Source of the DNA: a virus
Lineage: Duplodnaviria; Heunggongvirae; Uroviricota; Caudoviricetes
Virus record (IMG/VR): IMGVR_UViG_2925939204_000001
DNA length: 64,000 nt
Direction: 5' to 3' (one strand)
Under the pieces are notes generated by a model. That model did no database searches. It saw only the letters and a list, made by a program, of their open reading frames with translations, and had not been told where the DNA came from. Positions 2,489 through 55,243 of the stretch are shown piece by piece (position 1 is the stretch's first letter; each line of letters begins with the position of its first letter). Both the position numbers and the translations under genes were made by a program.

Positions 2489-3064
2489 ATGTTAATGGCG
2501 AACGATAACGCATATGCAGAAGAAGATCTCATTTTGAGTGACTTCATAGGGAAGCGGGAACGCTGGACCCAAAAGCGAGAGGAACTTTACGCCTCATTAG
2601 TTCGCAAAGGCGTCAATATCGAAACCGCACAGAGCGGCGATATGACAGTGGTAAGCGTTGGATTGCACGGTGTAAGCGTGTCAGCAATCAATCATGAGCC
2701 ATACGTTGCGTTATCCGAGTCAATGGTAAGGTTAGTTAAGTTCCTGAAGTACACAGAAGCGAATAATGTAATCATTGGCAAAAAGAATATCCCTTTTTCC
2801 TCGGCTTTTTACTGGATGATGAAAGGGCTTGATGCCCGGCGGACATCATGGCCTAAAGGGAGCTATATATCGATGTTCCGTGGCAGCATTGGCAGCAAAG
2901 AAAAGCTCTTCGAATTCTTGCCGGAAGAGGCATTCGATATTGTGGAAGGGTGCGATGTGATGGTGATGCCTCGCCTGGTAATGATGAATGGGGATTTACA
3001 GGCGCAGACAGACTGGTTTGCAACTGGTGTGGATATAATCGCGACTGACTGGGAGGCTTTCTGA
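2489..3064 (+). CDS. hypothetical protein (191 aa)
   Basis: Complete ORF with RBS-like AAAAAGGAGA upstream; translationally coupled to the next ORF. Confidence 0.55.
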   Translation: MLMANDNAYAEEDLILSDFIGKRERWTQKREELYASLVRKGVNIETAQSGDMTVVSVGLHGVSVSAINHEPYVALSESMVRLVKFLKYTEANNVIIGKKNIPFSSAFYWMMKGLDARRTSWPKGSYISMFRGSIGSKEKLFEFLPEEAFDIVEGCDVMVMPRLVMMNGDLQAQTDWFATGVDIIATDWEAF

Positions 3065-3456
3065 TGTACGGGACTACCAAATTAAGCACTCAACAGGCCA
3101 CCAATATGGAGTGGTCTATCGCTAACTGTAAGATCGTGTCATGCAATGCCACGCGTACTGATGTGGGCCATAAAAGCACTATAACAGGCTATCTAGTAAT
3201 GACCACCAGGGGGATGAGGGTTAGATTTCGCTGGAAAGCAGAGCAAGTAACGCCATTCAGAGAGCCATCAATGCCGCTGCAGGTTGAGCAGGATTATCTA
3301 TGTTTACCAGAAATAGATGGAGGAATGCTGGTGGAGTCTGATGGTAGTAAGGCTGATTTTGAAGCCAATTTGAAGCTGGCACAGGCCGTAATCAATAGTT
3401 ATCGCGGAAAGTGGATCGCAAAAGTGAAACATGTTGTTCGTTTGTCTCGCTGGTAG
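3064..3456 (+). CDS. hypothetical protein (130 aa)
   Basis: ORF start overlaps upstream stop (TGATG). Confidence 0.5.
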   Translation: MYGTTKLSTQQATNMEWSIANCKIVSCNATRTDVGHKSTITGYLVMTTRGMRVRFRWKAEQVTPFREPSMPLQVEQDYLCLPEIDGGMLVESDGSKADFEANLKLAQAVINSYRGKWIAKVKHVVRLSRW

Positions 3457-3474
3457 CGTTAGGTATTTAATATT

Positions 3475-3490
3475 AATTTTCTAATATAAT
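3475..3490. promoter_or_regulatory. operator-like site (weak copy, TTTTCTAATAT)
   Basis: Variant of the recurring TTTTCTAACA motif, upstream of the 3565 gene. Confidence 0.3.
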
Positions 3491-3564
3491 CATCTTTTTA
3501 CCAGTCTATACAGTTTTAACATTCTCATTATCATCCCCTCGGTCATTTCCTGCCCGGGGGATTA

Positions 3565-3957
3565 ATGGAACAAATCAGCAGCGCAGAAATTGCGGATATC
3601 ATGATCAGGGCTGACTGCTATCTGACAGTCACTGAAATTACCACTCTCGCCAAAGAAAAATACCCTCATCTCCATGTTTCACGAGTAAGTGTAACTAACA
3701 TCATTCGTCATTTTGTTCGTTCAAGCAGGGCAATCTGTGAGCTGGATGATCGTGTGTATCCACGAAAATACTGGCTACATGGTCTAAACGGATATCAGTT
3801 CAAGGTGCGCGGGCGCACGCCTGAATACGGTAGCTTACTGGTTAAAAACTGTAGCAGGAAATCAGTCGAACAGGCGCGAAAAGAGCAACGAGAGCTGGTG
3901 GACATGGCGAATAAGCTGTGGAATGCCGCCGTTAAAAAGCGTGGTGTTGCTTTATGA
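3565..3957 (+). CDS. putative HTH regulator immediately upstream of pacA (Lpa-like by position)
   Basis: 130-aa ORF with HTH-like segment LTVTEITTLAKEKY; position corresponds to the late-promoter activator gene of P1-type phages; preceded by an operator-like site. Confidence 0.4.
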   Translation: MEQISSAEIADIMIRADCYLTVTEITTLAKEKYPHLHVSRVSVTNIIRHFVRSSRAICELDDRVYPRKYWLHGLNGYQFKVRGRTPEYGSLLVKNCSRKSVEQARKEQRELVDMANKLWNAAVKKRGVAL

Positions 3958-5318
3958 GTCTGGTTAATTGGGAGGAGCACCGCGCCCGCTTTATAGCGTT
4001 GCGTGAAGAAAAAGGGATCACTGTAAAGGAATACTGTGAGGAGCATGGCCTTAGCTTCAATACAGCCAGAAAGCATCTCAATATGAAAAAAAATGAGGTG
4101 CGGTCGCAGGTAAAGACAACAAAAAAAAGCACCAAATCACCTGAAAAAAAACGGGCGGGAAGAGCAACAAAAAAGCTGGAAGAGGGTGCAGAAAAAACAA
4201 AATTTACAGAAATTGACAATTCGCAGGGCGCAGGTTCTTTCCGAAGTATGCCGAGAAAGAAAACTTCGGATCATGAAAATAATGCGAATAATAACAATGA
4301 GATAAAAGAATCTGTCAGGAGATCATTGCGCGAAAAAATGGCGAAAATGATCCCCGAAGAAGATAAAAGCGCCCCAAAAATTGAGGGATCTTCTGCAATG
4401 ATCCCCGACGGTGCTGTGCAGCGTGCCACATTGCCCACTACGAATGTGGCTCGCGATATGATGAAGAACGGCGCAGAAGAACACCTGCGGTTAGCAATTC
4501 AAATGGCGCAAGAGCGCGCACTTCAGTATCAAAGCATTGTTGATCAGGAGGCCGAACGTCTACAGGCGGAAATAGACGCCTTGGGCGATAAAGAGCCAGA
4601 AGGAATGCACCCTGGGCAGCGCCTTCTCGGTCTAATCAGTGGCGCGGCCTACTACATGAATGATTTTATCAGTAGGTTGGCAGCTATATATCAGTCCGAA
4701 CAAAAGCTGCGACAGGGGGATGAAAAGCTTCGTCAGAGCGCTCGCCAGCAAGCATTCAAAGAGGCTGAGGCCAGAGAAAAACTCGAATTAGCACGCCTAC
4801 AGGCCGAACAGCGTGGCAAAGAGATTGAATATCGCATTGGCGCTGACGCACGCGCAGCCAGAGTTATCGCCGCCGCTATACGTATGCGTGAGCGCGAGGA
4901 ACTGGATGATATCGGTGTTGCTGAATACATCGAGCGCCAGGGTGTCAGCGTCCCGGCTATCCTCGCGGCGCGCGCGGCGAAAGCTATCACTCTTCTCGAA
5001 CCACCTGTTTCTGACGTCAATGATGTTGATGATGAACAGCTGGACAAAGAGGCAAGGGAGTTTGCAACGCTTCAGGCTAACCATCCGCAATGGCTGGCAG
5101 AGCGCCGGGCGGATGTGGCAACCATTGTTGAAGAATTGGGGTGCGGAGATTACGACCGCAATGGCGAGCGTAAAGCTGGAGAATTCGAGGCCAACGACGA
5201 AGAGCTGGATATTGACCCTTCGGCAACGGCTGAAATTTACGGTGATTATGATGTATCTGATGCAGGGTATGACGCCGGAGATGATGATATCGCGATAGAA
5301 CCGCCGGAGGATGATTAA
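3954..5318 (+). CDS. pacA: terminase small subunit PacA-like
   Basis: 454-aa ORF, N-terminus MSLVNWEEHRARFIALREEKGITVKEYCEEHGL (HTH-like), coupled to the large subunit; GATC-rich cluster inside 5' part. Confidence 0.7.
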   Translation: MSLVNWEEHRARFIALREEKGITVKEYCEEHGLSFNTARKHLNMKKNEVRSQVKTTKKSTKSPEKKRAGRATKKLEEGAEKTKFTEIDNSQGAGSFRSMPRKKTSDHENNANNNNEIKESVRRSLREKMAKMIPEEDKSAPKIEGSSAMIPDGAVQRATLPTTNVARDMMKNGAEEHLRLAIQMAQERALQYQSIVDQEAERLQAEIDALGDKEPEGMHPGQRLLGLISGAAYYMNDFISRLAAIYQSEQKLRQGDEKLRQSARQQAFKEAEAREKLELARLQAEQRGKEIEYRIGADARAARVIAAAIRMREREELDDIGVAEYIERQGVSVPAILAARAAKAITLLEPPVSDVNDVDDEQLDKEAREFATLQANHPQWLAERRADVATIVEELGCGDYDRNGERKAGEFEANDEELDIDPSATAEIYGDYDVSDAGYDAGDDDIAIEPPEDD

Positions 5319-6853: not shown

Positions 6854-7891
6854 TTACCAGAGCTTCGCGGCGTACTGCGTTTGGGGGAATGTGTATCCGT
6901 AACGTTCTTCGATTGCTTTGCCGTATTTTTTACGAGCTTCATTCAGTTTAATGCCGGTCAGGTCGTCTCCAGAGGCCATCATTACGTCTAACAATTCCAG
7001 ATCCATTTTATCCAGCCTTGCCATTGCTTCACGTGATGTACGTATCTTACGCTCAATGATATGGCGAATAGCCGGATCGGCATCCTCCAGCATCTTAGCG
7101 GATTTCTGCTTAAGGCTTTCATTGCGAATATCGATGTTCCTTAAGATGTACGACTTCGCAACATAGCTTGGCTGGTGTTTTTCCAGGTCACGAACACGAT
7201 ATAAGTTAAAATCGCCGAGAAGGCTGCAAGGTACCGATTCGACGCCAGAATAAATTGTAATGCTCCGGCGTTCACCAACATTATTGACAACGGGGATCGT
7301 TGTCTTCGGTAGTCTTGCGAAAACCAATGCACCATGTGCGCCAACTCTAAAGCGAGAAAGGGCATTGCTGCCTTCGATGTTTGTTGTCAGCACAACATCT
7401 GTATATGCCTCTTTACGCGCCCGGTAGATCTCGCCTTCAGGCTCAGCTTCAAAGAAGCGCTGTTCTTCTTCAAGAGCACCTACGATTTGAGAAAAAACCC
7501 TATTTTTCAGGCTTTTCTTTATGATTTTGTCGTATTTTTTGAGCAATTGTTCACGTGTAAATGTACGTGTTGTTGTAGCGCTTTGCACAACAACATGCGT
7601 GCTTTGATTGGTGTCCTCAATGATGAATGGGATCGGAGAATATACAGACTCAACAATGTTCGACGCTTTGCCGTCGGCATCGCGACACATGTCAACGAAG
7701 GCTTTCCATTCAGCAAGACATTTTTCAGCTTCTTCTAATATGTTTTGGTCATGCGTTAATGCAACATGGCGGAATTCCTCGCCAGCATAACTGGTATCAT
7801 GGAAAACAGAGTTTGCGACCACCAGCTCTTTCCACCGTTCAGCGGTTTGCAGGAACCGTTTGTACTCTTTCTCGATCGACTTCTTACTCAT
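6854..7891 (-). CDS. hypothetical 345-aa protein in the position occupied by the c1 repressor gene in P1
   Basis: Complete ORF convergent with pacB, divergent from rox-dre; operator-like motif just upstream of its start; sequence itself not recognised. Confidence 0.5.
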   Translation of the reverse strand: MSKKSIEKEYKRFLQTAERWKELVVANSVFHDTSYAGEEFRHVALTHDQNILEEAEKCLAEWKAFVDMCRDADGKASNIVESVYSPIPFIIEDTNQSTHVVVQSATTTRTFTREQLLKKYDKIIKKSLKNRVFSQIVGALEEEQRFFEAEPEGEIYRARKEAYTDVVLTTNIEGSNALSRFRVGAHGALVFARLPKTTIPVVNNVGERRSITIYSGVESVPCSLLGDFNLYRVRDLEKHQPSYVAKSYILRNIDIRNESLKQKSAKMLEDADPAIRHIIERKIRTSREAMARLDKMDLELLDVMMASGDDLTGIKLNEARKKYGKAIEERYGYTFPQTQYAAKLW

Positions 7892-13379: not shown

Positions 13380-15300
13380 GTGCGCCGGGAGACCGGTAGA
13401 GATCAAGGGGTGAAAGTCCCCGACCATTGAAGGACCAGCAATCCACAAGGTCCCCGAGTCATGCGTTGCATACCGCGAGGTATGGGGCGAAGCGTTGACA
13501 GGGGTGTTGACAGGCCAGCCATTGAGCCACGAAATGTATATTAAATTACCGGGTGCCGACGTTGTACTGTTAACGGAAGGCAACATCATAGGGTGCGATA
13601 CTGCGAGTGCCACATGGACCCGGCGGGGTCTGAGACCCTGGCATGTCAATACGATCTCTACGCGGGAACCGGGAGATCTCCCCTCTGACCATCTGCCAGT
13701 GTCGGAGATGGCCCGCACCGGGAAGACGAGGAGTCATAGCCGGTGATGTACGGAGAGGAGAAGTCGGACTCGCTCATAGTAGCGGCGAAGCAGGCGAACA
13801 ACCCGAAAGGAGCGGAGTCAGTGGAGCGAAGGAGCGGGGCCAAGGGGAACGCGGAACAGCCACACATGCGCCGGACACAGAGCCGGGAAAGCATGTCACA
13901 GAGGCTGTCACGCGTGCGGGAAGCTGCGAAGCAGCAGAAGAAAGAACGGTTTACAGCATTGTTCCACCTGCTGACAGTCGAAGCACTGGAAGCCGCATTC
14001 CTCTCCCTGAGCAGGAAAGCGGCCGCGGGAGTGGATGGCATCAGGTGGATGGACTACGCCGGAAACATGAAGAACAACATAACAGATCTGCACCGGAGGC
14101 TACATCAGGGCAGCTACAGGGCGCAGCCCGGCAGGCGTCACTACATCCCAAAAGCGGATGGAAAACAACGCCCGCTCGGCATCGCCTCGCTGGAGGACAA
14201 GATCGTCCAGTATGCGCTGGTGAAAATCCTGAACGCAGTCTATGAAAACGACTTTATGGGGTTCTCATACGGGTTCAGACCCGGGCGAAACCAGCACGAT
14301 GCACTGGACGCACTGGCCACAGGGCTGGTACGCACTAACGTAAACTGGGTACTGGATGCCGACATCAGTCAGTTCTTCGACAGGGTGAGCCACGAATGGC
14401 TGATCAGGTTCACAGAGCATCGGATCGGCGACCGGAGGGTAATCAGGCTCATACGTAAGTGGCTCACAGCCGGGACGTCGGAGGAGGGTCAATGGCGAGC
14501 AACGGAGGAAGGCACCCCACAGGGTGCGGTCATCTCACCGCTGCTGGCAAACATATACCTCCACTACGTCTTCGATCTGTGGGCGCATCAGTGGCGACGT
14601 CGCTATGCCACAGGCAATGTGGTAATGGTCAGATACGCCGATGACATCGTCATCGGGTTCGACAAACGATACGATGCCCGGCGCTTCCGTATAGCCATGC
14701 AGCGCAGACTGAGGGAGTTCGGACTCACGGTTCACCCGGAGAAAACCCGTCTGATGGAGTTCGGCCGCTTCGCTGCCGAAAACCGTGCCATCAGGGGAAA
14801 AGGCAAACCAGAAACGTTCAACTTCCTCGGGTTCACGCACATCAGCGGGAAAGATCGCAACGGCAGGTTCATGCTGATACGAAAGACCCGCCGGGATCGG
14901 ATGACGGCAACTCTGAAAGCCATCAAAGACGGTCTGCGAAGGCGCTGGCATTACTCAATCCCCGAACAGGGAAAATGGCTCAGGAGAGTGGTTCAGGGAT
15001 ACCTGAACTATCACTCGGTACCGGGCAACTTCCCCACCATGCAGAAGTTCAGGACACACGTAACAAACCTCTGGCGCCGGGCGCTCAGGCGCAGGAGCCA
15101 GAAGGATGATACGACCTGGACGAAAGCAAACAAACTGGCAGCCGCATGGCTACCAAGGGTTCGGGTTCTTCATCCATGGCCTGTGGAGCGGTTCACCGCC
15201 AGACACCCGAGGCAGGAGCCCGGTGCGTAAATCGCGCACGCCGGGATCTGTGCGGGGGGTATCCGGTAACGGGTATCCCTACCGCGACATACATTGAAAA
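13380..15300 (+). mobile_element. group II intron (bacterial, ORF in domain IV); 3' boundary approximate
   Basis: 5' end GTGCGCC; internal RT/maturase ORF; 34-nt domain V-like hairpin with GUAA tetraloop and 2-nt bulge at 15252-15285 after the ORF. Confidence 0.7.
13743..15230 (+). CDS. group II intron-encoded reverse transcriptase/maturase
   Basis: RT motifs including GTPQGAVISPLLANIYL and YADD; C-terminal maturase region; no Cys-rich HNH endonuclease domain visible. Confidence 0.9.
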   Translation: MMYGEEKSDSLIVAAKQANNPKGAESVERRSGAKGNAEQPHMRRTQSRESMSQRLSRVREAAKQQKKERFTALFHLLTVEALEAAFLSLSRKAAAGVDGIRWMDYAGNMKNNITDLHRRLHQGSYRAQPGRRHYIPKADGKQRPLGIASLEDKIVQYALVKILNAVYENDFMGFSYGFRPGRNQHDALDALATGLVRTNVNWVLDADISQFFDRVSHEWLIRFTEHRIGDRRVIRLIRKWLTAGTSEEGQWRATEEGTPQGAVISPLLANIYLHYVFDLWAHQWRRRYATGNVVMVRYADDIVIGFDKRYDARRFRIAMQRRLREFGLTVHPEKTRLMEFGRFAAENRAIRGKGKPETFNFLGFTHISGKDRNGRFMLIRKTRRDRMTATLKAIKDGLRRRWHYSIPEQGKWLRRVVQGYLNYHSVPGNFPTMQKFRTHVTNLWRRALRRRSQKDDTTWTKANKLAAAWLPRVRVLHPWPVERFTARHPRQEPGA

Positions 15301-29273: not shown

Positions 29274-29852
29274 ATGCAGAAACAGAGCTATTGGGAGAAA
29301 CAGAGACAAAAAGCCATGCAAAAATTGGCTGACTCAGCCTGGCGAGAGGAACAAAGGGCAAAGCGCCTTCAACAAGCTCAACGCCAGCAGCAGCGAGCGA
29401 GAGAAAAAGCCGCATCGCCTGAATATCGGCAAAAGAAAATTGAAAAAGCAAAGCAATATGAACAGCGGAGAAAAGATAAAGCTGTATCCGCTCCGTCCAA
29501 AAAAACACGCACGTCACGCGGCCTGAAAGGCAGATCACTCACAGCCGATGAACGCCGGATACAGACCGCTATCGGTGCTCTCCCCTGCATTGCCTGCCAT
29601 ATTCACGGGCAACATAGCCCAGTGGTATCCCTGCACCATATCTTCGGGAGAACGGCAGAGAACGCGCATAAATATGTCCTCCCTTTGTGTAAATGGCACC
29701 ACCAGTACGCAGCGCCAGCCGAGGTCAGAGAACAATATCCCTGGCTGGTCCCTGTTCATGCTGACGGAAAAATAGGCGGAAAAGCAGATTTCATGCGGCA
29801 CAATGCCGATGAAATGACGTTGTATCAGATGGCGATTGAGTTGATAAATTAG
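29274..29852 (+). CDS. ref: Ref-like HNH endonuclease (recombination enhancement function)
   Basis: Lys/Arg/Gln-rich N-terminal ~80 aa then Cys/His-rich HNH-like core CIACHIHGQHSPVVSLHHIF...CKWHH; architecture matches P1 Ref. Confidence 0.6.
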   Translation: MQKQSYWEKQRQKAMQKLADSAWREEQRAKRLQQAQRQQQRAREKAASPEYRQKKIEKAKQYEQRRKDKAVSAPSKKTRTSRGLKGRSLTADERRIQTAIGALPCIACHIHGQHSPVVSLHHIFGRTAENAHKYVLPLCKWHHQYAAPAEVREQYPWLVPVHADGKIGGKADFMRHNADEMTLYQMAIELIN

Positions 29853-29863: not shown

Positions 29864-30456
29864 TTTAAGTTGAATTGAAAAACTCTCCGATGTACATTCA
29901 CTACCGATTGGCACACCGGTCAACTTTTTGAGACAAACTGTTTAGTTTTTCGTATTATTGCCTCCGCCATACCTATGGCGGTGCAATATAGGTGGCTGAA
30001 AAGCCCCCGTTGACTCACGGTGTTCCAGCCTTTATTGCGCCGCCACCAGACCGTGGAACAGTCGATGGCGGCTCCGAAAGCAAGGAGTCACAACACTATG
30101 AACAACTACAGTCTTTTCCCATCACTCGTCGTCCACCACTCACGCGATAATCTGCATTCTTTACTCGCGCTGGGGGTGTCAAAATGACTGTTCGCTACCT
30201 CAACTTTCAAATCAAGAACATTACTGGCGGTTGCTATGACTGGTTTGTCACTCTCGGAAAAGAAGTGATCACCGGGAAGCTGGATGAAGTGAAAGCTAAA
30301 GCAATGGCCTACGCCTGCAAGCAAGCCCGGAAGAAATCCGCCAAAGCATAAAATACTGACTGTTGCGCCCTGGCATTATCGTGGGGTATATTTCTACGGC
30401 ACCTTAGAAAAACGGGTGCCGGGATTGGAACCCCGGATAATGCAAAAGGCGACACA

Positions 30457-30478
30457 GACGCCGAAAGCGTCTTTTTTT
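30457..30478 (+). terminator. Rho-independent terminator
   Basis: GACGCCGAAAGCGTC hairpin followed by TTTTTTT. Confidence 0.6.
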
Positions 30479-30479
30479 G

Positions 30480-30640
30480 TGTCATGCCATCGCACAGCCA
30501 TACGTAGCGTTTAGCTCAGAGATCAATGGTAGTGCTGGCTGGGCTGCCGAAAGGCAGGCCGGTTCCCTTTTGCGCCGGTAGTTCCAACCCAGTCAGTGCT
30601 ACCGCCATTGAGATTGGAACCTCACGCGGTAGCTCCTTAA
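30480..30640 (+). ncRNA. putative c4-like antisense RNA / immI leader region
   Basis: Non-coding leader upstream of an icd-ant pair with short mutually complementary elements (GTTCCAAC at ~30579 and TTGGAAC at ~30613) near the icd RBS; boundaries not determined. Confidence 0.3.
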
Positions 30641-30663
30641 ATTAGCAAAAGGAGGCTGCCATT

Positions 30664-30879
30664 ATGGCTACTACCCCTACCCCAACTCATTCTGAATTTA
30701 TCTGGCGTTTCTATTCCTGCCAAAAACACCTCTATATCTGCGTCATGGCTGCTACCGAAGCAGAAGCGCGCTCATACCTTCCCGAAGAACCCTGCATTTT
30801 TGCTGCTCGCTTCACTCTTGATGCGATGGAGATCCTCAATTACTGGAATCTGCCGATGAACTGCGTGGAGGTGCACTGA
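30664..30879 (+). CDS. Icd-like small protein (71 aa)
   Basis: Small ORF directly upstream of and coupled to the antirepressor gene; paralogue of 51308..51523. Confidence 0.5.
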   Translation: MATTPTPTHSEFIWRFYSCQKHLYICVMAATEAEARSYLPEEPCIFAARFTLDAMEILNYWNLPMNCVEVH

Positions 30880-31820
30880 TGAATCTGTCCATCTCTCAAA
30901 AAGCGACAATGACCAGTATTGAGATCGCGGAACTGGTAGGTAAGCGTCATGATAATGTGAAGCGTACCATTGAAGTATTAACTAAAGGTGGTGTCATTCA
31001 ATTTCCTCAAATTGAGGAAATTGAAAATAAACAATCAGTTGGCCCTCGTCGATTTTCCAAGGCTTACATCTTTGAAGGCGAACAAGGCAAGCGTGACAGT
31101 ATCATTGTCGTCGCACAGCTTTCTCCCGAATTTACCGCCCGGCTGGTGGACCGCTGGCGCGAACTGGAGAATGCCCGGGTACAGTTAAAATCAAAAGCCG
31201 AAATCCTGGCTGAAATGGCGCAAATGCATCTTGAGCATGAACGCCGGATCAACGCCGTAAATGCCCAGGTAGCCGAGGTATCAGCACAAGTATCGATGGT
31301 CGCTGAAACACTCGAGCAAATAAAGAAGGGCAATATTCCGGAAGGCTACATTGGCTACCGCCAGCTGGCTGCGAAATGTGGCCTGACTGAAGCCAAATGC
31401 CGAAACCTGGTCAACGCTTACCGGATTCCCACCGATACGCATGAGTTTTTAACTCCCGATGGTTTGCTTGCGCGACGCTCCATTGTGGCCCTGGCCCCCT
31501 TCCGGAAAGCCTTTAAGCAGGTGATGTCGGAGGCAGAACCACGCAATAAACGCTGGTATCATCCAAAGATGGGGATGTTTCAGGCAATCCACCATCCTGT
31601 GCCTGAAAGCCCAAAGGATAATCTGTCACTACATACCGCCAGAGAGAAGATCAGGACTGGATACGCAACAGTGTGTCGTCGTTCTTCCTGGCCTGAAGGT
31701 ATATGGGTGTGGCCCGAAGGTGGATCACGAAAGCACTGGCGCACCATCCGTGACGGGAAAATCCATGCTATTGATTTAGCTCCAGAGGATGTTATTGCTA
31801 TGGACTGGATTGTTAGTTAA
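30879..31820 (+). CDS. antirepressor-like protein (Rha-type N-terminal domain, shared Ant C-terminal domain)
   Basis: N-terminus TSIEIAELVGKRHDNVKRTIEVL resembles phage Rha regulatory domain; C-terminal ~210 aa near-identical to 51523..52521. Confidence 0.6.
   Translation: MNLSISQKATMTSIEIAELVGKRHDNVKRTIEVLTKGGVIQFPQIEEIENKQSVGPRRFSKAYIFEGEQGKRDSIIVVAQLSPEFTARLVDRWRELENARVQLKSKAEILAEMAQMHLEHERRINAVNAQVAEVSAQVSMVAETLEQIKKGNIPEGYIGYRQLAAKCGLTEAKCRNLVNAYRIPTDTHEFLTPDGLLARRSIVALAPFRKAFKQVMSEAEPRNKRWYHPKMGMFQAIHHPVPESPKDNLSLHTAREKIRTGYATVCRRSSWPEGIWVWPEGGSRKHWRTIRDGKIHAIDLAPEDVIAMDWIVS
31185..31820. repeat. ~635-bp direct repeat, copy 1 (partner at 51887..52521)
   Basis: Near-identical DNA across the 3' two-thirds of both ant genes. 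Confidence 0.85.
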
Positions 31821-31879
31821 ATGCTGCATCCCCGGCGACGCCGGGGATTTAACTGCCAAATAATCGGATTATCCGCACG

Positions 31880-32191
31880 ATGAAAAAAATAGATTTCACT
31901 TATTCTGCCGCCACACTTGAGCGGCGCTTCACCCTCATTAGAGAGTTGGAACTGTCAAAAGTCTGGTATCAAATCCTACTGGATGAAGAGTTTTCACTGA
32001 TGGTTATAGCAGAAAAATTGGCTATGCCTAATGACCGGCACAAGGTCATAGCCAGCCTCGATCTGGTGACAAACAGATACTGGGAAACAGAGGAACTACA
32101 TGAGGCGGGAGTAATTCGTGACCTGATGGAGAATTCCGTTCCCCGCCGCTATCGTGCAGGGAACGGCATCTCCGTGGTTAAAGGTGTTTAA
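31880..32191 (+). CDS. hypothetical protein (103 aa)
   Basis: Complete ORF after terminator hairpin CCCCGGCGACGCCGGGG. Confidence 0.45.
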   Translation: MKKIDFTYSAATLERRFTLIRELELSKVWYQILLDEEFSLMVIAEKLAMPNDRHKVIASLDLVTNRYWETEELHEAGVIRDLMENSVPRRYRAGNGISVVKGV

Positions 32192-50780: not shown

Positions 50781-50940
50781 TTACTCCCCTTGTTTAGTGC
50801 CAGAGGACACGCCAGTGCTGTTAAACAAGTATCCGACATACGCTGAACAGTTATTCAGCACGATCGACGAATGCAACCAACGAAACGCACTGAATAACCA
50901 AAGAAACAGGGAGATTTGGGAAGGGAAGGGGCGGCAGTGA
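50614..50940 (+). CDS. Rz1-like o-spanin lipoprotein (overlapped architecture)
   Basis: Lipobox LSGC after signal peptide; starts inside the Rz-like gene in another frame and extends beyond it. Confidence 0.45.
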   Translation: MKSLALKMRYAVLGLTMCVCLMTLSGCSGNGQKPSTSVPVKITVEATSKPQANLIDYSPCLVPEDTPVLLNKYPTYAEQLFSTIDECNQRNALNNQRNREIWEGKGRQ

Positions 50941-50966
50941 GCTTCACAAAATCTATATAGCTATTT

Positions 50967-51003
50967 TATGTTAGAAAAATAATTTGAATTTTCGAACATA
51001 AAC
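50967..51003. promoter_or_regulatory. paired operator-like sites (TATGTTAGAAAAATAAT and variant TTTTCGAACAT)
   Basis: Copies of the recurring motif upstream of the second immI-like module. Confidence 0.35.
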
Positions 51004-51134
51004 AATAAAATAAATCATCAAAAATTTGATGTTGATCTTCCATGTTTTCAGGCTTATATTCACGCCGTTGCAGCAAATTCTGCGACCGGGTTTAGCAGCC
51101 TGAATGTACATGCGGACAACCGCAGATATCCGAT

Positions 51135-51300
51135 ATTGCGGTATTTTTGTGTCCGTAAAACCATGTTACGCCCGAATTATGGTGGGGCGTGATGGGGAGG
51201 CTTCGGCCTGCTGGTTTCATGTACGCCAGTCTGCTAACCCCGTCACGTCCTGCCACCCGTTTAGCAGCGGGTAGCAGGTTGTTAAACCTGTACATGAGGC
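51135..51300 (+). ncRNA. putative c4-like antisense RNA / immI leader region (second copy, different sequence)
   Basis: Same architecture as 30480-30640: hairpin with T run at ~51101-51130, then leader with self-complementary TGTACA-containing elements near the icd RBS. Confidence 0.25.
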
Positions 51301-51307
51301 CGTAACT

Positions 51308-51523
51308 ATGGTTAATGCCAATCCTTGCGCACGCCCGGAATTTATCTGGCGCTTTTATTCCTGCACAAAACACACCTACATCAGCGTAATGGCAGCTACT
51401 GAGGCTGAAGCGCGTTCATTTCTTCCTACAGATCCATGCATTTTTGCCGCTCGCTTTAAACTCGATGCTCTGGACGTTTTGACCTACTGGAACCGCCCAA
51501 TGAACTGCGTGGAGGTGCATTAA
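51308..51523 (+). CDS. Icd-like small protein (71 aa)
   Basis: Paralogue of 30664..30879 (shared EFIWRFYSC...VMAATEAEARS...PCIFAARF...NCVEVH). Confidence 0.5.
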   Translation: MVNANPCARPEFIWRFYSCTKHTYISVMAATEAEARSFLPTDPCIFAARFKLDALDVLTYWNRPMNCVEVH

Positions 51524-52521
51524 TGGACGCAGTAACTATCAATAACAAACCATTCCCGACTCTCGAATATAAAAATCAGCGTGTAGTGACCTTTGAGATG
51601 ATTGATGAGGTGCACGAACGTGTTGATGGGGCAGCCAGGGGAACATTTAAGCGAAACAGAAGTCGTTTCATTGAAGGGGTGGATACTTATGTTATTGATT
51701 ATTCTGAAAAGGGCTTTTTAAGCCCATTTGGAATTGATGTCCCCCCGCGCGGTTTGCGCGTGTTCACTGAGTCCGGCTATCTGATGATTGTTAAGTCATT
51801 CAATGACGATCTGGCCTGGCAAGTGCAACGTGAGCTGGTAAACAGCTATTTTCGTATTAAGCAATTAATACCGGAGCACTCACCGCTAAAATCAAAAGCC
51901 GAAATCCTGGCCGAAATGGCGCAAATGCATCTTGAGCATGAACGCCGGATCAACGCCGTAAATGCCCAGGTAGCCGAGGTATCAGCACAAGTATCGATGG
52001 TCGCTGAAACACTCGAGCAAATCAAGAAAGGCAATATTCCGGAAGGCTACATTGGCTACCGCCAGCTGGCGGCGAAATGTGGCCTGACTGAAGCAAAATG
52101 TCGCAACCTGGTCAACGCTTACCGGATTCCCACCGATACGCATGAGTTTTTAACTCCCGATGGTTTGCTTGCGCGACGCTCCATTGTGGCCCTGGCCCCC
52201 TTCCGGAAAGCCTTTAAGCAGGTGATGTCGGAGGCAGAACCACGCAATAAACGCTGGTATCATCCAAAGATGGGGATGTTTCAGGCAATCCACCATCCTG
52301 TGCCTGAAAGCCCAAAGGATAATCTGTCACTACATACCGTCAGAGAGAAGATCAGGACTGGATACGCAACAGTGTGTCGTCGTTCTTCCTGGCCTGAAGG
52401 TATATGGGTGTGGCCCGAAGGTGGATCACGAAAGCACTGGCGCACTATCCGGGACGGGAAAATCCATGCTATTGATTTAGCGCCAGAGGATATTGTTGCT
52501 ACGGACTGGATTGTTAGTTAA
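51523..52521 (+). CDS. antirepressor-like protein (KilA-N/Bro-N-type N-terminal domain, shared Ant C-terminal domain)
   Basis: N-terminal ~110 aa unrelated to 30879..31820; C-terminal ~210 aa near-identical. Confidence 0.6.
   Translation: MDAVTINNKPFPTLEYKNQRVVTFEMIDEVHERVDGAARGTFKRNRSRFIEGVDTYVIDYSEKGFLSPFGIDVPPRGLRVFTESGYLMIVKSFNDDLAWQVQRELVNSYFRIKQLIPEHSPLKSKAEILAEMAQMHLEHERRINAVNAQVAEVSAQVSMVAETLEQIKKGNIPEGYIGYRQLAAKCGLTEAKCRNLVNAYRIPTDTHEFLTPDGLLARRSIVALAPFRKAFKQVMSEAEPRNKRWYHPKMGMFQAIHHPVPESPKDNLSLHTVREKIRTGYATVCRRSSWPEGIWVWPEGGSRKHWRTIRDGKIHAIDLAPEDIVATDWIVS
51887..52521. repeat. ~635-bp direct repeat, copy 2 (partner at 31185..31820)
   Basis: Near-identical DNA with a handful of substitutions. 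Confidence 0.85.
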
Positions 52522-52556
52522 TTACTGTTGCCCCGGCCTGTCCGGGGCTTTCGTGA

Positions 52557-52961
52557 CTAAAAATCTGTTCGCTGTCGCCATGCGTTTTTTAACTCAGGAA
52601 TATCCGCCATTTCAATTAACTTGCGAAGTCCAGCACTGACTTTCCCATTGCCAACCATAGCAAGCCAATCTCTTACTGCTTTCGGCATGTAGAGCGTTGC
52701 AGTTACCGGCTCTTCAACCCTGGCAGGACATCCGCATACAGGCCATTTAACTGATTCCATAACTTCGGATGCCGGGGTGAGGGCGGGGACATTGAGTATA
52801 TCTCTACCAGAAAACTGGATAACGATCCGTTCAGCGAGCGAGAGTATCTCACTTTCGGCAAGAATTGATGCCAACTGCGCCTCAACAAGAAAGCGACTTG
52901 TTGTGTTCAGAGAGTGGCTCTTAGCGCCATTTTTATACGAAACAAAGATTCGATACGCCAT
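52557..52961 (-). CDS. hypothetical protein (134 aa)
   Basis: Complete ORF; operator-like motif just upstream of its start. Confidence 0.45.
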   Translation of the reverse strand: MAYRIFVSYKNGAKSHSLNTTSRFLVEAQLASILAESEILSLAERIVIQFSGRDILNVPALTPASEVMESVKWPVCGCPARVEEPVTATLYMPKAVRDWLAMVGNGKVSAGLRKLIEMADIPELKNAWRQRTDF

Positions 52962-53119: not shown

Positions 53120-54817
53120 GTGAATAAAAACATTCAGCCAGCTCGTGATCGCGAGCGCGAGATTATGAATCGGGCGGCAAGCGTCATGGCTATGACCGTC
53201 GATCCGACCACCGATGCAGCAGGCAACATGATTGCTGACCAGGCAGTAATGATGGAAAACCTGGATAAAGCAATCCAGAAAGTGCCTATGTTTGAAGGCG
53301 TAAATCCAGAGGTCGCTCGTCAGATCACTGGTGGGTGGGCTATGTCTCTGCATGAGTATAAACGTCAACATGGTCATTACCCGGCAAGTGACATCCTGGC
53401 GAACGCACACATGGCTCTTGAGCGCCTGATGACTGAATGTGCCAGTGATACCCATGAAGGCACGGGTAAGGCAATGTTTGAGTCTGTCGCGCAATCAATG
53501 CGTAGCTCTGACGGCGTAATGAAAGTTGCTCAATATGCTGCTCTAATTCTGCCTGCCTCTCTGGGCGCTGCTACCAGTGATGCCTGTACTTTTGTTCCTT
53601 GTGATCGTGACGAGTCAAATATTTATGAACTGGTCAACGTAGCAGGCACAAAATTCGGCACCTTCAAACAAGGTGACGAACTGAATATGCAGTCAGCTGG
53701 TGTTTATTCTCAAATGAAGCGCCTGTATACCCTTTCCACTAAAGGGGATGGCAGCACCAAAACCTTCCAGTTCGACATCCAAAATTTTGAGGGACAATCC
53801 TGCCCGCTTCGCGCTGGTTATAACAAACTGCTGATCAACCGCAAACCGTCCAAAGTTGACGACGGCGATGGCAACCTTTATTTCAATGCTAAAGACAGCA
53901 AAGGTAATGCTTTCTCAGCGACTGCCAAAGTTGCCTATGACACTGGTGTCATTGACATTACATTTACCCAGGCTCCGCCAGTAGGTACTGAAATTGCTGT
54001 TCAGGTCGAAATTAACATCGAGCGCAATCCAAGCCTGATTCCGGTGATCAACCAGGCTATGCGTAAGTACGAAGTTCGTCCGTCCCAGTACGTACTTGCT
54101 TCCGAACACACGGTAATGTCCGCATCCGATTTAAGCCGTGAGCACGGCCTTGAATTAGCGGCACTTCAGTTCTCCGCGATGCGTAACTGGATCTCCCATG
54201 AAACCGACATCATGCGTCTGCGCACCCTGGTATTCCATACCGTTTATGGTCGTGAATTTGATGTGGCTCTGCCGGAAGCTCAAAACTATGAGTCCTGGGT
54301 CGGCCTCCTGCGTCACGCAGTAAACGCTCTGTCTCAAGAAATGGCAAATCGTACCCTGACAACGGGTATTCGTGGCGGCTTTGCTGGTAGTGACGCCGCG
54401 AACTTCCTGCGCTCTCTGCCTCCACAGCACTTCCAGATCGCACCAGGTTACGTTCAGTCGCCGTATGTACAGTACATCGGCACCCTGTTTGGCACGATTC
54501 GTATTTACGAAGTGCCGCAACCTGTCTGTGAGCAATTCCTGGCACAGGGATATGACTTCGGGCTGGATGACATCTTCTTCTATGGGCGTGGCGAAGGCAT
54601 CGGTAAAGCCGGTCTGATTGCTGGTGATGCAGTCCCAGCAATCCCTTACGTTCACGAAACCAATCCGTCTCTCGTTAACCGTACCACTCTCTGGGGCAGT
54701 GCCATCAACGAAGTACATCCTCGCAACGGTGAAAACTACTTCACCCGCCTGCGTCTGACTCGTGCCAAAGAAGGTGCTATCGACATGCTGACAGGCAAGG
54801 TTAACGAAAAAAAGTGA
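53120..54817 (+). CDS. large virion structural protein (565 aa; head-protein size class)
   Basis: First gene of a rightward structural cluster; no motif recognised by eye. Confidence 0.45.
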   Translation: MNKNIQPARDREREIMNRAASVMAMTVDPTTDAAGNMIADQAVMMENLDKAIQKVPMFEGVNPEVARQITGGWAMSLHEYKRQHGHYPASDILANAHMALERLMTECASDTHEGTGKAMFESVAQSMRSSDGVMKVAQYAALILPASLGAATSDACTFVPCDRDESNIYELVNVAGTKFGTFKQGDELNMQSAGVYSQMKRLYTLSTKGDGSTKTFQFDIQNFEGQSCPLRAGYNKLLINRKPSKVDDGDGNLYFNAKDSKGNAFSATAKVAYDTGVIDITFTQAPPVGTEIAVQVEINIERNPSLIPVINQAMRKYEVRPSQYVLASEHTVMSASDLSREHGLELAALQFSAMRNWISHETDIMRLRTLVFHTVYGREFDVALPEAQNYESWVGLLRHAVNALSQEMANRTLTTGIRGGFAGSDAANFLRSLPPQHFQIAPGYVQSPYVQYIGTLFGTIRIYEVPQPVCEQFLAQGYDFGLDDIFFYGRGEGIGKAGLIAGDAVPAIPYVHETNPSLVNRTTLWGSAINEVHPRNGENYFTRLRLTRAKEGAIDMLTGKVNEKK

Positions 54818-54964
54818 TGGTGGCGAACGTGTCGGTATCACCAACGTCACTTGACGTAGATGAAGGTGAAACTATCGCCGCGAACACTTCAAAGGCACAG
54901 AAAAAAACAAAGCAGAAGTAAGGCAAAAACACGCCCCTGATTAAGGGGCGGTAAGGAGAAAAAA

Positions 54965-55243
54965 ATGGCAAACATTCAAGTAACTATCACGCCACCTGAC
55001 GCAACAGACAAATCTTTCACTGTTGAGTCAGATCACCCTGATATTGTCCAGGTTGATGGCACTACATGTACCGCTCTTAAGGCCGGGCAGGCAGTGCTGA
55101 CAATCAAAACAAATGACGGCAATAAAACCGCACAGTGCACAGTCACTGTTAGGGAGGCACATAAAAGCGTAAGCACCGTCAGTGTTGAACCAACTACGAA
55201 AGAAGTAACTGTAGGCGATAACTTCACGGTAAGCGAATCCTGA
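54965..55243 (+). CDS. Ig-like (Big_2-type) domain protein, possible decoration protein
   Basis: 92 aa with Thr/Val-rich beta-strand pattern VTITPPDATDKSFTVESDHPDIVQVDG typical of bacterial Ig-like domains. Confidence 0.5.
   Translation: MANIQVTITPPDATDKSFTVESDHPDIVQVDGTTCTALKAGQAVLTIKTNDGNKTAQCTVTVREAHKSVSTVSVEPTTKEVTVGDNFTVSES

Follow-up and report, generated by a model that had tools for sequence, protein, structure and literature searches.

The c4-icd-ant mechanism of phage P1, by which a small antisense RNA silences a cell-division inhibitor (icd) and an antirepressor gene (ant), is reportedly set out in studies by Citron and Schuster in 1990, Biere et al. in 1992, Riedel et al. in 1993 and Hartmann et al. 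in 1995. In the immI operon of P1, the c4 RNA is excised and pairs through two elements, a′ and b′, with the sites a2 and b2, blocking the ribosome-binding site of icd, and translational coupling together with polarity then prevents synthesis of the antirepressor Ant (PMC8201110, PMC6906374, P1 record). A second described system is the isrK-orf45-anrP-isrJ locus of Gifsy-1 in Salmonella, in which translation of anrP increases more than 100-fold when IsrK is supplied in trans and for which read-through transcription and a processed RNA of ~80 nucleotides (STnc1160) have been demonstrated experimentally (Hershko-Shalev et al., 2016; PMC4825925). Here we analyze a 64,000-nucleotide stretch of viral DNA (the window; IMG/VR record IMGVR_UViG_2925939204_000001), which is part of a D6-like phage-plasmid of Escherichia coli. 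As judged from its sequence, the plus strand at 30363–31820 holds a complete immI-type operon, module 1, in which an IsrK-like leader RNA with its terminator, a c4 antisense RNA, a target leader, an icd-like gene and an overlapping ant-like gene follow one another. We propose, with a probability of about 85%, that module 1 is a functional secondary immunity operon that would work in the manner of c4-icd-ant of P1. Module 1 is an ordinary member of a well-known kind, already largely annotated and present in the databases and the literature, and within that kind it is set apart as an allele with its own specificity and a Rha-type effector.

RNA parts and recognition sites of module 1

The c4 antisense RNA gene lies at 30522–30609 (plus strand), where the Rfam C4 family (RF01695) matches with 76.7 bits (gathering threshold 45; E value 3e-13). 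From the analogy with P1, the mature RNA is predicted to span approximately 30528–30606, some 79 nucleotides. A long closing stem and two hairpins give it the canonical c4 fold, with a minimum free energy of −46.4 kcal/mol (z = −5.5 against shuffled sequences), and it stays a separate domain when the entire leader of 282 nucleotides is folded (z = −4.9). When eight diverse c4 sequences were analyzed with RNAalifold, 28 base pairs were recovered, 14 of them with compensatory changes. A MAFFT alignment of three c4 sequences was set aside, as hairpin 2 was not structure-consistent in it. At the level of sequence, release by RNase P is hinted at only by a tRNA-like acceptor stem with GCCA behind it.

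Upstream of c4 lies an IsrK-like leader RNA at 30399–30479 (plus strand), made up of hairpin 1, hairpin 2 with the a1 site in its loop, the b1 site and an intrinsic terminator. The Rfam isrK family (RF01394) matches 30399–30477 over the full model length (1–77) with 62.5 bits (gathering threshold 50; E value 5e-11), and the same stretch gives a sub-threshold match of 22.4 bits to the Rfam family c4-a1b1. The family trait of two 5′ hairpins, the second with the loop UUGGNNN, followed by an intrinsic terminator is found here, and hairpin 1 carries compensatory changes among eight relatives. The terminator (30456–30479, plus strand) consists of the stem AGACGC/GCGTCT around the loop CGAAA (30456–30472; −7.9 kcal/mol) and a run of seven T residues (30473–30479), 43 nucleotides after which c4 begins. 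A hairpin with a T-run occupies this position in every relative examined, with compensatory stems (GACGC/GCGTC vs. CACGC/GCGTG), and on this comparison the terminator is a conserved, integral part of the module that forms the 3′ end of an IsrK-type RNA and is not merely the end of the upstream gene. A probable sigma-70 promoter at 30363–30392 (plus strand), with the −35 element TTGCGC (30363–30368), an 18-nucleotide spacer and the −10 element TATATT (30387–30392), is proposed by positional comparison, as its place corresponds to that of TTGACA/TATATT before isrK in Gifsy-1 and of the annotated promoters P1c4/P51b of P1. Two other candidates in this region were dropped. The motif TTTAGAAAAC, which occurs close to the c1-like gene and also in the loop of IsrK hairpin 1, shows no excess in the window (8 copies vs. 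6.2 expected), and D6 orf84 (D6 4010–4309; window 30309–30608), annotated on the minus strand opposite isrK and c4, has no family match, is broken in the window and is probably not a gene.

Two short elements of c4 are single-stranded in the predicted fold, namely b′ (CCUUUUGC; DNA CCTTTTGC, 30566–30573) in the loop of hairpin 2 and a′ (GUUCCAA; DNA GTTCCAA, 30581–30587) in the 3′ junction. Both find complementary sites on the same strand, once in the leader RNA and once before icd, and the Watson-Crick match to the targets is complete (7/7 for a, 8/8 for b). The leader RNA contains a1 (TTGGAAC, 30425–30431) and b1 (GCAAAAGG, 30442–30449). Downstream of c4 are a2 (TTGGAAC, 30614–30620), in the loop of a small predicted hairpin, and b2 (GCAAAAGG, 30645–30652), which overlaps the icd Shine-Dalgarno sequence AAGGAGG at 30648–30654. 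Across the whole window the two site words occur near chance (10 copies vs. 10.3 expected and 5 vs. 3.7 expected), with three of the ten and three of the five falling in the 230-nucleotide leader, in the order seen in P1.

A preliminary description of the locus had listed a terminator hairpin, a non-coding leader, self-complementary words, a 71-residue Icd-like open reading frame and a Rha-type open reading frame, all of which are present on the plus strand, and had likened the whole to P1 immI. That layout is borne out by an element-by-element match to the annotated P1 operon and by the recognition of both c4 copies of the window by Rfam, and the structure prediction suggested there for the leader returned the c4 fold given above. 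What was described as a c4-like leader does contain c4, and it is really three RNA parts, the IsrK-like a1b1 RNA, c4 and the a2b2 target. The module does not begin at 30447, a position that cuts through b1, and its actual start lies ~50–85 nucleotides farther upstream (leader at ~30399, promoter at 30363). Nor do TTGGAAC and GTTCCAA bracket the ribosome-binding site, as had been thought; they are the a2/a′ pair, both located 5′ of it, and it is b2 that covers the Shine-Dalgarno sequence. The trio formed by b′, b1 and b2 and the third copy of TTGGAAC, at a1, are additions to the earlier account.

The region from 30399 to 30660 is to be annotated as RNA, in place of the “ash family protein” or “hypothetical protein” given in RefSeq and D6; between the terminator and the icd ATG at 30664 there is no convincing gene. 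The opposite view, which is the published model for Gifsy-1, would be that “c4” is a small protein gene of 39 codons (orf45/“Ash”, 30526–30645) and that the IsrK-like RNA activates translation in cis by refolding the long transcript, with no antisense pairing in trans. The reading frame does begin at an AUG at the 5′ end of c4, RefSeq places its “ash family protein” on 30526–30645 (plus strand), that is, on the c4 gene, and the translation of 30526–30642 passes the threshold of Pfam Phage_ASH (PF10554; 33 bits vs. a cut-off of 26). In Gifsy-1, moreover, an orf45-SPA fusion was detected and mutation of the first AUG lowered anrP activation (PMC4825925). Against this, the region scores well above threshold as C4 RNA and its stems carry compensatory changes, and c4 in P1 is an experimentally established RNA, annotated as misc_RNA. 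The c4 lengths of 74, 76 and 78 nucleotides reflect within-loop differences that are not multiples of three, so that no reading frame is conserved, and the Gifsy-1 authors themselves found the nucleotide sequence of orf45 conserved and its amino-acid sequence variable (PMC4825925). Furthermore, since the reading frame at 30526–30645 stops 19 nucleotides before the icd ATG, it cannot be coupled to icd. We consider a coding cis switch improbable for these reasons and retain c4 as an RNA that acts in trans. The Phage_ASH match is most likely an artefact of a translated RNA gene, and the Phage_ASH family may, wholly or in part, have been built on translated RNA genes.

Covariation of the sites and two modules on one element

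If c4 acts by pairing, its elements and their targets should change together, and this is what the relatives show. An Icd profile led to 86 related loci (the contig scan of genomes yielded 6, and viral contigs gave the diversity); in each locus c4 was located with a folding script and the flanks were searched for complements of its two single-stranded elements, and Gifsy-1, RCS47, phiP27 and one Klebsiella phage were added to the comparison. The related phages and plasmids fall into 14 specificity classes on several c4 scaffolds, with 7 a-types and 10 b-types combined independently of one another. No class departs from the rule that a′, a1 and a2 change as a set and b′, b1 and b2 likewise, with G·U wobbles in a few classes. 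In a formal test with 10 representatives, full-length pairing was found for 39 of 40 cognate combinations and for 6 of 336 non-cognate combinations of different type. Between the window and D6 the a site alone differs (TTGGAAC vs. TTGAGAC), and it does so at a1, a′ and a2 alike. On this evidence complementarity is preserved through compensatory change, so that the absence of conserved complementarity in relatives, which the preliminary description had named as grounds for giving up the assignment, is not what is observed. These freely reassorting types, at least 7 for a and 10 for b, form a natural catalogue that directly records the evolution of immunity specificity and would offer ready orthogonal pairs of antisense RNA and target.

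The window holds a second set of the same parts, module 2, with an Rfam c4-a1b1 match at 51054–51106, C4 at 51175–51260, icd at 51308–51523 and a gene for an ORF6N protein at 51523–52521 (plus strand). Its sites are TTAGCAG (a) and GTACATG (b), compared with TTGGAAC and GCAAAAGG in module 1. The c4 RNA of module 1 is predicted to form duplexes of −9.7 and −13.9 kcal/mol with its own a2 and b2, and of −6.2 and −10.5 kcal/mol with the sites of module 2; for the c4 RNA of module 2 the corresponding predictions are −13.8 and −19.5 kcal/mol on its own sites and −7.2 and −8.7 kcal/mol on those of module 1. As both the sites and the cognate and non-cognate pairing differ, the comparison supports different specificities for the two modules. 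The earlier suggestion of two circuits of different specificity is upheld by the distinct a and b sites, by the greater predicted stability of the cognate duplexes and by the 14 covarying classes, and the element would carry two heteroimmune secondary immunity circuits.

Compared with D6, which lacks it at the corresponding site, module 2 represents an insertion or replacement: window 50932–52572 stands in place of D6 54622–55102, with flanks that are 99% identical. Its leader is 88–91% identical to those of P1 and P7, and in its present form it occurs on only ~9 plasmids in PLSDB. That D6-like plasmids have a second c4-icd (antisense-RNA/icd) region had been noted by 2019 (PMC6799933). The P1-like phage RCS47 (NC_042128) carries a module-1-type isrK-c4-icd-ant at 2501–4100, between pacB and c1, with a = TTGAGAC and b = GTCAAAGG, and since the leader-icd query also matches its record at one further place, two modules on one element are not unique.

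The two ant-like genes are tied together by direct repeats of ~640 base pairs (31181–31820 and 51882–52521, plus strand) that lie 20.7 kb apart. Their DNA is 97% identical where 31181–31480 is compared with 51882–52181, and the C-terminal 211 residues of the module 1 protein match the end of the module 2 ORF6N protein with 98% identity. Near-identical C-terminal halves behind unrelated Rha and ORF6N N-terminal domains suggest that gene conversion has occurred and that both proteins share a single effector, and deletion could take place between the repeats. This near-identity, together with the recent insertion of module 2 relative to D6, could also be taken to mean that module 1, as a duplicate that is redundant or in decay, lacks a separate function and that only one of the two modules matters. 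We regard this as very improbable. All parts of module 1 are intact, its three-way site complementarity is perfect, and the site variants are always co-changed at three positions, which requires selection. Module 1 is, moreover, the widespread and ancestral one, present in D6, in 91 PLSDB plasmids and, at a coverage of at least 80%, in 86 complete E. coli genomes. Specifically, its region is 93–98% identical to that of these ~90 plasmids of E. coli, Shigella and Salmonella, and among 5426 complete E. coli genomes, leader plus icd occur in 313 (~6%), with 324 of 333 occurrences plasmid-borne and three records 100% identical. Plasmid NZ_CP162407 of E. coli strain PEC1021 shows 100% identity over 30363–30900.

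Icd, Ant and the proposed mechanism

The icd-like gene (30664–30879, plus strand) encodes 71 residues that match NCBIfam phage_ICD_like (NF033153; 49.5 bits, cut-off 25) and PHROG 1426 (E value 1e-40), and that are 56% identical to P1 Icd and 70% identical to the Icd of module 2. Its stop codon overlaps the start of the ant-like gene (30879–31820, plus strand) in TGATG at 30877–30881. The product of the latter has 313 residues, with a Rha N-terminal domain (Pfam Phage_pRha, PF09669, residues 11–98; 37.3 bits, cut-off 29.9) followed by the C-terminal part of 211 residues. It is Rha-like in its first ~100 residues only; TIGR02681 scores 18.8 bits, below its cut-off, and the entire length is matched by PHROG 63, “anti-repressor Ant” (E value 6e-62). 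The family of the C-terminal part is small, with 50 representative clusters among 1.84 billion proteins, and its first ~135 residues, which form a middle domain, are fused elsewhere to Rha, ORF6N, KilA-N or AntA N-terminal domains, a kind of domain shuffling that is usual among phage proteins of the antirepressor type. Just beyond the gene is a possible end-of-operon hairpin (31828–31848, plus strand) with a GC-rich stem of nine base pairs and a weak U tail (−17.2 kcal/mol, z = −2.75), a tentative assignment that the terminator scan did not report.

Based on these features and on the P1 mechanism, we put forward the following scheme for module 1. A single promoter would drive the whole module, and most transcripts would probably end at the intrinsic terminator to give an IsrK-like RNA of ~80 nucleotides that displays a1 and b1. 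Read-through transcripts would contain c4, which could be excised as a stable, tRNA-like RNA of ~79 nucleotides, in P1 by RNase P. This RNA would expose the short single-stranded b′ in its hairpin loop and a′ in its 3′ junction and pair in trans with the a2 and b2 sites of its own operon leader. Since the icd ribosome-binding site lies under b2, we propose that icd is left untranslated under c4 pairing, and because ant overlaps icd and would depend on its translation, by coupling and Rho polarity as in P1, the Rha-domain Ant would not be made and the prophage would stay repressed. The target that Ant would inactivate is a C1-like repressor, for which the window provides a candidate gene at 7097–7873 (minus strand), a distant homologue with 21% identity to the C1 of RCS47 (E value 3e-7). 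Specificity would reside in two site pairs of 7–8 nucleotides, here TTGGAAC and GCAAAAGG. Finally, the terminated a1b1 RNA most likely serves as a decoy that titrates c4, as proposed below for IsrK in Gifsy-1, and would set the threshold of the switch.

Several observations weigh against this scheme. The consensus promoter scan did not report the module 1 promoter, because its weak −35 element has only 3 of 6 matches. For the decoy step, constitutive expression of orf45/STnc1160 left IsrK toxicity unrelieved in Gifsy-1 (PMC4825925), and the a1 and b1 sites of P1 are still annotated as “putative” (P1 record). The c4 RNA of module 1 has a predicted duplex energy on the module 2 b site (−10.5 kcal/mol) that is not negligible, and some cross-talk between the modules may occur. 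The window, including the promoter, contains no P1-type C1 operator (ATTGCTCTAATAAATTT, up to 3 mismatches), a search made with the consensus of P1 for a window whose own C1 homologue is only 21% identical. As to Ant itself, a tblastn search of the window for homology to P1 Ant1 returned nothing, the ANT/KilAC domain of Ant1 (PF03374) is absent from the 313-residue protein, and that protein has no similarity to AnrP of Gifsy-1.

These last points bear on a different reading of the effector, in which the RNA circuit is real and the 313-residue protein, rather than counteracting the C1-like repressor, acts as a DNA-binding regulator or as a host-directed or exclusion factor. Module 1 would then govern some process other than prophage induction. 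The protein is named “Rha family transcriptional regulator” in every source, its C-terminal domain family is small and uncharacterised, and besides its lack of similarity to P1 Ant and AnrP a sequence search of the PDB gave no match to a solved structure. An AlphaFold2 model built on a 15-sequence alignment had a mean predicted local distance difference test score of 48.7, with the C-terminal half below 50, and was therefore too poor to be used for fold comparison. Given the missing similarities, the antirepressor role is one that we infer from position and family labels, and of the earlier assignment of a Rha-type antirepressor, the Rha domain stands and homology to P1 Ant1/2 is undetectable. 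Nevertheless, the gene sits exactly where ant does, overlapping icd, and PHROG 63 covers it from end to end; the shuffling of its middle domain among ORF6N, KilA-N and AntA N-terminal domains is typical of antirepressors, and AnrP of Gifsy-1, an ORF6N-type protein, is reported to be an antirepressor (PMC4825925). We therefore judge another role for the protein unlikely, although less so than a coding function for c4, and prefer an Ant that would act on the repressor.

Relation to known systems

The closest relative is Escherichia phage D6, which is 91.2% identical to the window over the full length of 30300–31900 and 96.7% identical in leader plus icd, and in which the matching genes are annotated as “Icd-like” and “anti-repressor Ant”. 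D6 orf83 (icd-like) and orf82 (ant), and plasmids such as pYU39_89, have the same locus, with a Ref-like nuclease gene upstream and a pmgF-like gene downstream. In the window, as in D6, the gene for this RecA-dependent nuclease lies just 5′ of module 1 (29274–29852, plus strand; Pfam PF16786, 120 bits). Farther away on the phage-plasmid there are a cluster of four tRNA genes within 549–2032 of the window (plus strand; Rfam tRNA at 549–622, 631–714, 722–794 and 1960–2032) and a group II intron, recognized by an Rfam D1-D4-6 domain at 13413–13638 (plus strand; 186.6 bits).

In P1 and P7 immI the order of a1-b1, c4, a2-b2, icd and overlapping ant is the same as in module 1, and so, in P1, are the c4 fold (RF01695), the position of a′ in the 3′ junction and of b′ in the loop of hairpin 2, and the way in which b2, at an unchanged position with respect to the icd start, covers the ribosome-binding site. 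Recognition sequences are not shared (TTGGAAC/GCAAAAGG in module 1 vs. TTGACAG/GTTAGTG in P1), and the c4 scaffold differs in sequence. The a1b1 leader of module 1 has a compact canonical terminator and an isrK match above threshold, whereas that of P1 matches isrK over its full length with a sub-threshold 35.1 bits. The Ant of module 1 combines Rha with an unknown C-terminal domain, in contrast to the KilAC/ANT domain of P1 Ant; module 1 is also not followed by kilA-repL, and the P1-type C1 operator was not found in the window. Farther afield, Stx-converting and other lambdoid phages (phiP27, LC710660) have a leader and c4 that are ~70% identical, in more than 160 phage records, where they precede genes for Rha or “regulatory” proteins. 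The a-type of module 1, TTGGAAC, recurs in phiP27 and Klebsiella phage 020009, whereas the b-types of the lambdoid isrK-C4 modules differ from that of module 1; these modules have no icd, and c4 acts directly on the ribosome-binding site of the regulator.

Gifsy-1 shows the same arrangement as module 1, with isrK and its terminator, then a full C4, then a2 and b2 over the ribosome-binding site of the effector; it differs in that there is no icd and b2 lies directly over the anrP ribosome-binding site. AnrP is an ORF6N-type protein of 187 residues, unrelated to the Ant of module 1, and no isrJ was found in the window with Rfam. Immediately 5′ of anrP in Gifsy-1 (NC_010392, 34316–34076, minus strand), Rfam recognizes isrK (79.3 bits), c4-a1b1 (48.1 bits) and C4 (69 bits), and the published orf45 opens with the AUG found at the c4 5′ end and extends to the start of anrP. 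With numbering from 34316, the first base of the isrK match, which we validated by the published A107 and the AUG at 119–121, the published mutation pairs isrK-G28A/orf45-C162U and G31A/C159U (PMC4825925) correspond exactly to base pairs between a1 (UUGGCGU) and a′ (ACGCCAA). The Gifsy-1 IsrK locus thus appears, from this match of sequence and mutations, to be a c4 system in which IsrK is the a1b1 leader and orf45/STnc1160 is c4. The Gifsy-1 paper treats c4 as the coding sequence orf45 and does not mention P1 or icd (PMC4825925); the link between IsrK and c4 is not made in the searchable literature, and a 2025 review lists the two separately. We infer that IsrK behaves as an anti-c4 decoy in Gifsy-1 and propose the same role by homology for the 30399–30479 RNA of module 1.

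The essence of this comparison is that, if the Gifsy-1 IsrK locus is a c4 system, “orf45” would be reinterpreted as c4 and the a1 and b1 sites of P1 would gain a tested function as an anti-antisense decoy. A wider generalization, to which we would give even chances, is that immI circuits are three-RNA systems of decoy (a1b1/IsrK), c4 and target leader, in which titration of c4 by the leader RNA triggers the antirepressor. Gifsy-1, the a1 and b1 sites of P1 and module 1 would then represent one mechanism, and the two orthogonal copies in the window would lead to two Ant proteins, Rha and ORF6N, whose shared C-terminal half would make them an OR gate with a single output.

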